DNA from: an uncultured Candidatus Saccharibacteria bacterium
GTDB lineage: Bacteria; Patescibacteriota; Minisyncoccia; Phycocordibacterales; UBA9973
Reading direction: 5' to 3'
DNA: 64,000 nt
Assembly (NCBI GenBank): GCA_964468315.1
Contig: CAYXTA010000004.1
Coordinates: 10,976-74,975, forward strand
A program made the position numbers and the translations under genes. This document shows, piece by piece, positions 1 to 2,825 of this stretch (the first letter of the stretch is position 1; each line of letters begins with the position of its first letter). The notes beneath the pieces were generated by a model, which saw only the letters and a program-made list of their open reading frames with translations, was not told where the DNA came from and made no database searches.

Positions 1-2825
1 ACAACTATTTTCAAAGTATCTTCAATTAAAAACTTTGGATTATACTTTGGCCAAGGTGTAAGGTGTATGGATTTCTTTTCTCCAAATTCTCTCCAAAGTT
101 CTTCTGTGATATGTGGAGCAAAAGGAGCTAAAATTTGTAAAAATATTTTAAAGTCTTTCACAGAAATATTTTCAACTTTATCCATTTCATTTACCAACAC
201 CATCATTGAAGAAATAGCTGTATTGAAAGCAAAATTTGATATATCTTCATGAACTTTTTTAATTGTTTTGTGAAGAGTTTTTTCTAAATCTGAACCTGCA
301 TGCTTTTGCGAGCTGGTCTGGTGATTTTCCCCGAGGACCCGAGCAGAAGCATTAGGTGAAGATTTAACTTTTTGACTAATCTTCCAAACACGCTCGATAA
401 ATCTACGAGAACCAATAATACTATCAGTATTCCATGGCTGACTGGCTTCAAATGGACCCATAAACATTTCATACACACGAAGTGTATCTGCACCATATGT
501 CTTTACAATATCATCTGGATTGATGACATTTCCCCATCTCTTACTCATCTTGCGTCCATCACTCGCTAAAATCATTCCTTGATTTTTCAAAGTTTTAAAT
601 GGTTCAGCTGTCGGCACATAACCCATATCAAAAAGGAATTTATGCCAAAAACGAGAATACAACAAATGTCCTGTCGCATGTTCTGACCCACCGACATACA
701 TATCTACATCTTTCCAATACTTCAACATTTTTTTATCAGCAAAAGATTTTTTGTTTTTCGGATCCATATAACGCAAGAAATACCAAGAACTTCCCGCCCA
801 TCCTGGCATTGTGTTTGTTTCGTATCCTGCTTTTGCCCATGCTTTCACTCCAGCCAAAGGACTTTCTCCTGTACCCGTCGGTTCATATGAAGTAACATTT
901 GGTAAAACGAGTGGAAGTTTTTTATCTGCAACTTCAGAAATAGTTCCATCTACATTATGTATGAGCGGAATCGGCTCACCCCAATATCTTTGTCGTGCAA
1001 ATATTGCATCACGCATCTTATATTTTTTTACAAATTTTCCATTAACTTTTTTTGTAATTTCTTTGCGAGCTTGTTCGGAAGTTAAACCAGTAAATTTATT
1101 TGAAGAGACAAGTTCACCTTCCTCAGAATAAAATAAATTTTTATTCTGAATATATCTTTCCAAGATTTTTGCTTGGCAAATGTTTCCAACTTCTTTAAAA
1201 TTCCTTACTGCTTCTTTTACATCTATCCAAATTAATTTTGCTTCTTCTGTATTCTCTTTTATCTTTGATATATCAACAGAAACTGCGAATCCATGATTAA
1301 CCATTGTCCAAAAACCATTGTGATTACTTTTTCTTTCACAAAACCAATTAGTTCTAAATGTTCCAATTTTTGATTTTACTTTTACATCAGTAGTACCTAT
1401 TTCTTCCGACAATTCTCTCATTAAAGCTTGATATGGGTCTTCACCTTTTTCTATTCCTCCACCAATAAGTATGTATTTACCTGCAAATTTTGTATCTTCA
1501 TCATTTAATTCTTCACACAAAATTTTACCACTATTTTCAATTACTACGGAAACTCGATTTCGAGATCGAGCATCGGGTTTTTTATCTCCAGAAATTTCAG
1601 CGATTACTTCTTTTATCGGCAAATTATATTTCTTCGCGAATTCAAAATCACGCTCATCGTGTGCAGGTACTGCCATCACAGCACCAGTGCCGTATGAAGC
1701 AAGCACATAGTCAGCGACCCAGACAGGCACTTCTTCGCCATTTGCAGGATTTATAGCTTTGATACCTTTGAGTTCTACGCCTGTTTTCTCCTTCTGAATA
1801 GTCATATCTTCTTTCTTTGCTCGTTCTTTCGCTTCACGAATATACTCTGTAACTTCGGCCATATTTTGTGATTGCACAGTGAATTCTCCGATATTTGTAT
1901 GCTCTGGTGAAAGCACAACATATGTAACTCCAAACAAAGTGTCCGCACGAGTTGTGAATACTTTTATATTTCTATTGATTGAAGTTTTAAATTCAATTTC
2001 ACTTCCCTCACTCACTCCAATCCAGTTCTTTTGAATCTCTTTTATATGTGATGACCAATTCAAATCTTCTAAATCTGAAACAAGACGATCAGCATATGAA
2101 GTAATACGCATAAACCATTGGCGCATTGATTTTTTCTCTACTGGATATCCTCCGCGTTCTGAAACAGGATTACCGTCTTTGTCATCGACTATTTCATCGT
2201 TTGCGAGAACTGTACCGAGTTTTGGGCACCAATTAACTTCACTATAGCCTTCATAAGCCAAGCGATAATTCATCAAGATTTTTTCTTTTTCAACCTCTGA
2301 AAGTTTTTTCCAATCTTTATTTTCTTTGGAAAGTTTTTTAATCAATTCTGAAATAGGACGAGCTTTATTTTTTTGTTCATCGTAATATGAATTATAAATC
2401 TGAAGGAAAATCCATTGTGTCCATTTGTAATATTCTGTATCAGTAGTATTTACTTCTCGTGACCAATCATAGGAAAAACCAATCTTGTCGAGCTGACCAC
2501 GGAAAGTTTTGATATTTTTTTCTACAGCTTTGCGAGGATGTATTTTGTGCTCTATGGCGTATTGTTCTGCTGGCAGGCCAAAAGCATCATAACCCATAGG
2601 ATGAAGCACATTATAGCCCTGCATACGCTTCATACGAGCATATACATCACTTCCTATGTATCCGCGAGGGTGTCCGACGTGTAGCCCTGCACCAGAAGGA
2701 TATGGGAACATATCAAGCACATAATGCTTTTTCTTTTTAGTAGTGTTTTGTGTTTTGTAAACTTTTTTTGTTTCCCATTCCTTTTGCCACTTTTTTTCAA
2801 TTTTATTGTGATCGTACTCTTTCAT
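1..2825 (-). CDS. leuS: Leucine--tRNA ligase (LeuRS), C-terminus runs off the window start. Carries an in-frame NUDIX hydrolase domain (~1150-1580) between the CP1/editing domain and the 'FTGLTSEQA...[10 protein letters not shown]' segment.
   Basis: Manual minus-strand translation is continuous with no stops from ATG at 2825 to position 1. Motifs found: [16 protein letters not shown] (HIGH), [38 protein letters not shown], KMSKS. It is absent from the ORF track because it has no in-window stop. Confidence 0.9.
   Translation of the reverse strand, partial: [941 protein letters not shown]

Follow-up and report, generated by a model that had tools for sequence, protein, structure and literature searches.

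A recombining Nudix domain cassette nested in the CP1 editing domain of a patescibacterial leucyl-tRNA synthetase

What is a complete Nudix hydrolase domain doing inside a leucyl-tRNA synthetase (LeuRS)? The question is raised by a stretch of 64,000 nucleotides, called the window below, from an uncultured Candidatus Saccharibacteria bacterium (GenBank assembly GCA_964468315.1, contig CAYXTA010000004.1, positions 10,976 to 74,975). At its beginning lies the gene leuS, on the minus strand, with a Nudix domain in frame in the CP1 editing domain of the encoded synthetase. The reading that is favoured here, with a probability of roughly 0.6, is that the product is a bifunctional protein, in which a normal LeuRS would be joined to a nucleotide pyrophosphohydrolase that works independently and is carried along by an essential gene. 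The coordinates of all features are collected in Table 1.

The host enzyme itself is readily recognized. Read from position 2825 to position 1, the open reading frame (ORF) of leuS holds 941 codons without a stop before it runs off the window, and it is identical to residues 1-941 of a database protein of 998 amino acids (P0001). In an NCBIfam scan, the ORF scores 894.7 bits with the model leuS_bact (TIGR00396, cut-off 548.4), with the C-terminus missing from the window. Pfam detects the editing domain tRNA-synt_1_2 (PF13603, residues 266-434, model positions 1-167 of 185, 200.8 bits), and tRNA-synt_1 and Anticodon_1 are matched as well. Motif inspection located the two signatures of the synthetic site and two intact motifs of the editing site, the threonine-rich TTRADT and GTG...HDxRD, both of which are (nearly) invariant in 103 homologues. 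Compared to the LeuRS of Thermus thermophilus (1H3N; 609 bits with phmmer), the leucine-specific domain, which typically but not universally lies beside KMSKS, is absent, the alignment skipping from T. thermophilus residue 580 to 637 at query residues 755-759 (window 537-563, minus strand), and 42 residues are extra (residues 146-187; window 2265-2390, minus strand). Judged by its sequence, the protein is a bacterial-type LeuRS from a Nomurabacteria-like member of the Patescibacteria, and it would carry out leucylation and editing. Apart from the Nudix insert, the gene has a second hypervariable stretch (window 216-395, minus strand; codons 811-870), in the linker ahead of the anticodon-binding domain. 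Its nucleotide identity to three relatives is 43-79%, against 89-100% in the neighbouring codons, and an AlphaFold2 (AF2) model has a predicted local distance difference test score (pLDDT) below 50 at residues 828-836 within this linker.

The initial annotation, made from the DNA letters alone, had read the leuS frame as uninterrupted across the insert, and the stop-free ORF bears this out. Because independent assemblies of two other runs, ERR4405439 and ERR4405440, both yielded the identical 998-residue product in the same gene neighbourhood, a chimeric assembly or a frameshift in leuS is very unlikely. The same combination of LeuRS and Nudix is moreover found in dozens of homologues from NCBI, JGI, ENA and Logan. 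The probability that the continuity is an assembly artefact or reflects a chimeric contig is consequently negligible.

The insert had been described as a complete NUDIX domain, its Nudix box intact, in frame and internal to LeuRS, at 1150-1580. This description is correct: Pfam assigns NUDIX (PF00293) to the leuS ORF with E 1.3e-11 and 45.1 bits, compared to a gathering threshold of 21.1, and the excised insert reaches 49.6 bits. The coordinates were right too, the full variable cassette spanning 1113-1613. It consists of an N-terminal extension of about 20 residues, the Nudix fold and two C-terminal helices. Its Nudix box, the catalytic metal-binding motif, is complete and fits G-x5-E-x7-R-E-U-x-E-E-x-G, with a threonine at the last U position, which is a tyrosine in most of the embedded family. 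Across 78 embedded homologues the catalytic core of the box, REx2EE, is retained almost throughout (R in 74/78, and the three glutamates in 78/78, 77/78 and 78/78). With its catalytic box intact, the embedded Nudix domain is apparently active.

The position of the insert had been placed in the connector after CP1, which proved to be wrong. The alignment to 1H3N stops at query residue 419 (T. thermophilus residue 372) and restarts at query residue 565 (T. thermophilus residue 376), so that about 145 residues stand in place of about 3 residues of the T. thermophilus enzyme, whose editing domain comprises residues 224-417. Because canonical CP1 sequence continues after the insert, the Nudix domain is nested within CP1 and not behind it. 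It sits after KKYNLPI and before GxLxNS. In the AF2 model it is bordered by the strands IKEVI and ELVS, which is consistent with an insertion point at the tip of a β-hairpin in CP1.

AlphaFold modelling had been proposed as a check on whether the insert forms an autonomous fold, and its outcome is positive. Modelled alone, the insert has the strand-helix order of a Nudix domain (pLDDT 88.8, predicted template modelling score (pTM) 0.84); the corresponding values for the full-length LeuRS are 84.9 and 0.77. The predicted insert is a self-contained domain of which both ends meet at the hairpin. A Foldseek search of the PDB with this model gave 509 matches at E <= 1e-3, and all listed top matches are Nudix enzymes, namely NudG/ORF135 (2rrk), a MutT-family protein (2azw), RppH (4s2y), NudI (6dt3) and an Ap4A hydrolase (3i7u), with E from 7e-9 to 7e-8, TM scores of 0.54-0.74, a probability of 1.0 and 16-24% identity.

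The architecture is by no means a one-off, and the proposal of the initial annotation to look for the same insertion point in LeuRS homologues was productive. Among the 120 best LeuRS homologues of the window protein, 78 have 158-185 residues in the same alignment columns, including PF00293, while the remainder have 6-60 residues there. The named members of this set are all Patescibacteria (Nomura-, Pace- and Zambryskibacteria), except for one labelled Nitrospira sp., which is taken to be mis-binned. A scan of the GTDB species representatives with P0001 as query yielded 359 relatives. In about 56 of the best 80, a Nudix domain occupies this site, a proportion that is biased upward by a query that included the insert. 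By title these 80 are all Patescibacteria as well, bar a few whose titles are generic or evidently stem from mis-binning, and they include LeuRS from Taylor-, Giovannoni-, Vogel- and Magasanikibacteria that are 42-50% identical to the window LeuRS. The closest GTDB species representative, a metagenome-assembled genome of a Candidatus Nomurabacteria member (91% identity), is without the insert. A Nudix domain in this CP1 slot is thus the majority state among the closest LeuRS homologues and not a singleton.

Presence and absence of the cassette vary between very close relatives, as illustrated by three of these that share the gene order of the window (P0002, P0003 and P0005). In P0005, the leuS flanks are 94-100% identical at the nucleotide level and the cassette is absent, about 549 bp and the next 20 or so canonical CP1 codons being replaced by 30 nucleotides. 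In P0002, only 4 differences are found in 525 compared nucleotides (0.76%) over codons 393-589, compared to a divergence of 7.8% in the flanking leuS sequence (dS about 0.4), and the nearest flanking differences are at codons 392 and 590. In P0003 the pattern is reversed, with 36% nucleotide divergence (48.5% amino acid identity) in the cassette and 8.0% nucleotide divergence in the flanks (p = 3e-53). A neighbour-joining tree of the LeuRS core requires at least 25 changes between presence and absence, with the state 'present' at the root. The cassette is therefore gained, lost and swapped between close leuS alleles by recombination. Its GC content at third codon positions (GC3) is 0.14, against 0.23-0.30 for the gene. 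The ratio of nonsynonymous to synonymous divergence (dN/dS), at saturated dS, is about 0.40 in the cassette and 0.04 in the N-terminal core of LeuRS, which points to selection on the cassette that is purifying but relaxed.

The alleles without a cassette (P0005-P0009, P0011, P0013 and P0015) additionally lack the adjacent canonical CP1 segment GxLxNSxxFxGLxSEEARK. Only IDRP(F/L)VDAKE stands there instead, so that these organisms can dispense with part of the standard editing domain. The absence of these canonical residues from the short alleles would fit secondary deletions.

A cassette that moves between leuS alleles might be a selfish mobile insertion of the intein or homing type, and one relative (P0055) does have a DUF559 endonuclease domain in frame inside CP1. 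In the window cassette, however, Pfam finds NUDIX only, with no Hint, intein or endonuclease domain, and splice-junction residues are absent. Furthermore, the exchanged tract takes in conserved CP1 codons to the left and right of the cassette, which is the pattern that ordinary homologous recombination would leave. The exact cassette DNA has no match in the JGI metagenome contigs or the IMG/VR viral contigs, and a protein-level search of metagenome contigs returned generic NUDIX matches only. From these searches there is no evidence of a phage or plasmid vehicle, and the subtype is rare. Altogether, a selfish insertion is very improbable. A defence origin and a phage origin were considered as well. 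In PADLOC the only match was a generic one, to the candidate system PDC-S07 (40.6 bits), and the PHROGs matches were likewise generic, to MutT/NUDIX; neither result is taken as evidence.

The slot discussed so far is not the only place where LeuRS accommodates extra domains. Relatives of the window protein have further in-frame domains at three other sites, corresponding to window residues ~286, ~575 and ~625-633 (P0070, P0063/P0081, P0049, P0055, P0045, P0031/39/44, P0002/P0107, P0124 and P0122). The site near residue 286, early in CP1, harbours between one and three Nudix domains or, alternatively, a Ham1, ASCH, α/β-hydrolase or DUF559 endonuclease-like domain (the last with 117 bits) or a weak HAD-like segment. 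At ~575 a second Nudix domain is found, and at ~625-633 either a second Nudix domain or a segment of 96-107 residues without annotation; the latter is common to P0002 and P0107 and has no Pfam match. An α/β-hydrolase fold class is inserted within the LeuRS of P0049 and P0128. The locus L001 has, just outside the window and two genes past leuS (5624-6196), a free-standing gene for a Ser_hydrolase or α/β-hydrolase-like protein, and the fold it shares with these inserts may be a coincidence.

Nesting of Nudix domains is not confined to synthetases either. In P0262, an M17 aminopeptidase, a NUDIX domain is inserted alongside two GNAT domains, and P0138, P0131, P0123 and P0197 each consist of three or four tandem NUDIX domains. 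On the basis of these proteins, multiplication and nesting of Nudix domains seem to be a more general trait in these organisms.

With regard to the origin of the cassette, a profile of the embedded inserts finds 26 clusters of free-standing NUDIX proteins of 154-184 residues (P0271-P0296), with 136-162 bits. These are encoded by separate genes in unrelated neighbourhoods, not beside leuS, and on a neighbour-joining tree of low resolution they nest among the embedded sequences. They share the motifs WKK..W and K..NR with the embedded inserts. Because their alignment covers the cassette in full, N-terminal extension included, the cassette is the equivalent of a complete Nudix gene of about 165 codons. 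The subtype of the window is common to P0002, P0003, P0022 and P0041 and is about 20% identical to the free-standing family. It matches a profile of the other embedded inserts end to end with 74.9 bits, compared to 49.6 bits for Pfam NUDIX, while its identity to the mainstream embedded inserts (about 23%) is no higher than that to generic NUDIX proteins (about 25%). From such values, the window cassette may either descend from a common ancestor with the mainstream inserts or have replaced one of them as another Nudix gene.

A second NUDIX protein is encoded elsewhere in the window, at 39658-40134, and was put forward by the initial annotation as a paralogue of the insert. The domain assignment stands (46.6 bits), whereas the proposed relationship does not. 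Its identity to the insert is 33% over 76 residues, essentially the Nudix box, and it scores 25 bits with the profile of the embedded family, compared to 75 bits for the window insert. This ORF is accordingly ruled out as a donor or paralogue of the cassette, and it represents a distinct lineage. Its own Nudix box reads GGIEAEEDVFMAAKRELIEEIGV, and a spurious-looking ORF of 131 codons overlaps it on the opposite strand.

According to the favoured reading, the LeuRS part would charge and proofread tRNA-Leu as usual. The Nudix module, displayed on CP1, would be an independent Mg2+-dependent pyrophosphohydrolase acting on a nucleoside 5'-polyphosphate compound, candidate substrates being (d)NTPs, dinucleoside polyphosphates (NpnN) like Ap4A, or the 5'-polyphosphate or capped end of an RNA. 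Through its position in a permissive loop of an essential gene, the module would be expressed constitutively; LeuRS would do without the module and the module without LeuRS. The autonomy of this accessory enzyme is suggested by the near-identical strains that lack the cassette, by the unlinked free-standing homologues and by the unrelated passengers in leuS. That Ham1, ASCH, α/β-hydrolase, DUF559 and extra Nudix domains occupy other sites argues for LeuRS as a permissive scaffold. The substrate class is put forward as a prediction, because no characterized Nudix subfamily model reaches its cut-off. With the window insert, the best NCBIfam equivalog is NudI (38.5 bits, cut-off 95), followed by RppH (36.5, cut-off 118) and MutT (35.8, cut-off 97.9); the mainstream embedded inserts obtain at most 30 bits with the Nudix subfamily models, far under the cut-offs.

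This lack of a subfamily assignment counts against the favoured reading, and so do several other observations. Nudix domains are found at four or more LeuRS sites, sometimes in two or three copies, which is more than a purely neutral hitch-hiker would predict, and such recurrent insertion hints at some functional link to LeuRS. The link could consist in a coupled module that hydrolyses, locally on CP1, the Ap4A or further NpnN that arise when the synthetase combines Leu-AMP with ATP, or that acts on a different nucleotide ligand of the synthetase or its tRNA, for instance an RNA end with an Np4 cap or a 5'-ppp group. Besides the recurrence at distinct sites, such coupling is favoured by the retention of a Nudix domain in the slot across LeuRS down to 42% identity, and by the structural neighbours Ap4A hydrolase (3i7u) and RppH, of which one entry (7sp3) is Ap4A-bound. 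The best, though weak, NCBIfam matches of the mainstream inserts, RppH and YtkD, point the same way, all of them being below the cut-off. The residues downstream of the Nudix box provide a lead only: a tyrosine at +16 to +18 reportedly marks ApnA hydrolases, a rule that is ascribed to Dunn and co-workers (1999). A proline at about +15 to +16 marks ADP-ribose pyrophosphatases. When 77 inserts were scored, an aromatic residue at +15 to +18 was present in every one (77/77), a tyrosine at +16 to +18 in 49/77 and the ADP-ribose-type proline in 0/77. The window copy, however, has a tryptophan and a phenylalanine (W16/F17) and no tyrosine, and every Nudix subfamily match is far under its cut-off. Coupling is also at odds with free-standing orthologues unlinked to leuS, with near-identical strains that do without the module, with unrelated enzymes inserted in the same gene, and with Nudix insertions in proteins other than aminoacyl-tRNA synthetases (aaRS), such as the M17 peptidase. 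On balance, it is considered unlikely. Similarly, in this group of Patescibacteria CP1 might be a true plug-in slot in which nucleotide-pyrophosphatase cassettes, of Nudix and sometimes of Ham1, are kept for joint work with the synthetase, their turnover reflecting diversifying selection. Possible joint roles would be the destruction of Ap4A or NpnN from LeuRS, RNA uncapping, or the inactivation of LeuRS inhibitors that mimic nucleotides. This is rather unlikely.

Other observations that tell against an independent working enzyme concern the state of the window copy itself. In an exhaustive phmmer search of 1.84 billion representatives, the cassette had a single match at E <= 1e-30, a LeuRS fragment, and 298 matches at E <= 1e-3, which marks it as a rare and fast-evolving subtype. 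The family-conserved motif K..NR has become K..FW in this copy, which, given this change and the GC3 value, could be decaying. The cassette might thus be a passenger that is dead as a catalyst or in decay, having no hydrolase role and persisting in this lineage as a relic, structural or nucleotide-binding, that is heading for loss. The loss of the cassette in sister alleles, the tenfold-different dN/dS values of cassette and core (about 0.4 against 0.04), the low GC3, the missing NR motif and the rarity of the subtype would all suit such a relic. Nevertheless, the window copy and those of P0003, P0022 and P0041 all have a fully intact Nudix box, dN/dS stays under 1, the cassette has recently passed in intact form from one lineage to another, and AlphaFold predicts its fold with confidence. 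A dead or decaying passenger is therefore quite unlikely, and an autonomous accessory enzyme is retained as the favoured reading.

How does this protein relate to known systems? With canonical bacterial LeuRS (class Ia; T. thermophilus 1H3N/2BYT and E. coli 4AQ7/4ARC) it shares the Rossmann core, HIGH, KMSKS, CP1 at the bacterial position, the editing motifs, the anticodon-binding domain and the C-terminal domain. It differs from the T. thermophilus enzyme by the Nudix domain between residues 372 and 376 of the latter, by the missing leucine-specific domain (T. thermophilus ~580-637) and by the 42 extra residues. With small Nudix hydrolases (NudG 2RRK, NudI 6DT3, RppH 4S2Y/7SP3, the Aquifex aeolicus protein 3I7U and MutT) the insert has the predicted α/β/α fold, the box and the size in common; unlike these, it is nested in another enzyme and has the N-terminal extension of about 20 residues and two extra C-terminal helices. 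A comparable case is an isoleucyl-tRNA synthetase with an N-acetyltransferase domain, for which NCBIfam has a named exception family (NF040702, ileS_w_GNAT) and which also combines a class Ia synthetase with an extra small-molecule enzyme domain but differs in both the synthetase and the fold of the passenger. NCBIfam contains no curated model for LeuRS with NUDIX that would correspond to it. In Mycoplasma mobile LeuRS, the leucine-specific domain is replaced by the tetrapeptide GKDG, and a bacterial LeuRS thus tolerates the loss of whole modules (PMC3643597). The equivalent of GKDG in the window protein is the stretch ASDGRK. While modules were removed from the M. mobile enzyme, a foreign enzyme domain was added to the window LeuRS. 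The 'CP1 hairpin' of PMC4138327 is a different element from the loop that bears the insert.

The initial annotation had also suggested that this architecture was not described before. Full-text searches of the literature that combined LeuRS or aaRS with Nudix and with the candidate phyla radiation (CPR), Patescibacteria or Parcubacteria gave no description of it. The sequence databases, on the other hand, contain many examples, which bear no labels other than 'class I tRNA ligase family protein', 'leucyl-tRNA synthetase' and 'NUDIX domain-containing protein'.

The remainder of the window contains a 16S rRNA gene, beside which no match to 23S rRNA was found, and an RNase P RNA; ARAGORN found no tRNA genes in the 64 kb. 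The GC content is 0.42-0.49 at 54000-64000, up from 0.27-0.40 (mostly 0.28-0.35). The genes in this part are ordinary ones, encoding 16S rRNA, SecD/SecF, an NAD-epimerase, a sugar transferase, a GT4 glycosyltransferase and a pilin-like Laminin_G_3 protein. Adjoining leuS, an ORF of 154 codons (3401-3865, plus strand) encodes a protein whose N-terminus is hydrophobic and whose tail is made up of acidic near-repeats (DVDEIQEDV...). This protein has weak DUF948/DUF1003-like matches under the cut-off, and the gene is kept beside leuS in the relatives L084 and L085.

Table 1. Positions of the leuS gene, its motifs and insert, and other features of the window.
Feature	Position	Strand	Remarks
leuS coding sequence	1..2825	-	ATG at 2825-2823; C-terminal 57 codons beyond window start
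KMSKS signature of synthetic site (KMSKR)	537..551	-	aa 759-763; motif inspection
Recombination tract	1059..1649	-	codons 393-589; versus P0002, Fisher p = 4e-12
Variable Nudix cassette	1113..1613	-	aa 405-571
Pfam NUDIX domain (PF00293)	1197..1562	-	aa 422-543; 45.1 bits
Nudix box, catalytic metal-binding motif	1392..1460	-	aa 456-478
Editing-site motif GTG...HDxRD, intact	1647..1691	-	directly upstream of insert; motif inspection
Editing-site threonine-rich motif TTRADT, intact	1938..1955	-	motif inspection
HIGH signature of synthetic site (HVGH)	2670..2681	-	aa 49-52; motif inspection
Separate NUDIX ORF, 158 aa	39658..40134	+	Pfam NUDIX, 46.6 bits
RNase P RNA	46965..47306	+	score 105.9, just over gathering score of 100
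16S rRNA, complete	53557..55088	-	

Synthetases with appended domains are well known. A complete second enzyme that is nested in the CP1 editing domain and kept throughout a large bacterial radiation, by contrast, does not figure in the literature searched. An essential enzyme of translation is seen to accept foreign catalytic domains in its proofreading domain, and to have gained them repeatedly, at no fewer than four sites. An essential gene here contains a recombining accessory cassette, of which present, divergent and absent alleles occur among strains with 92-100% identical flanks. If the module were coupled to the synthetase, aminoacylation would be linked in cis to Ap4A or nucleotide signalling, and if CP1 were a true plug-in slot, the swapping, replacement and loss of cassettes at the strain level would reflect diversifying selection and not neutral drift. 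Alleles that have the cassette, lack it or contain another one form a natural series, which constitutes a ready-made experiment. The genomes of Patescibacteria are tiny, and nesting may allow these bacteria to express housekeeping enzymes that have no regulatory DNA of their own.

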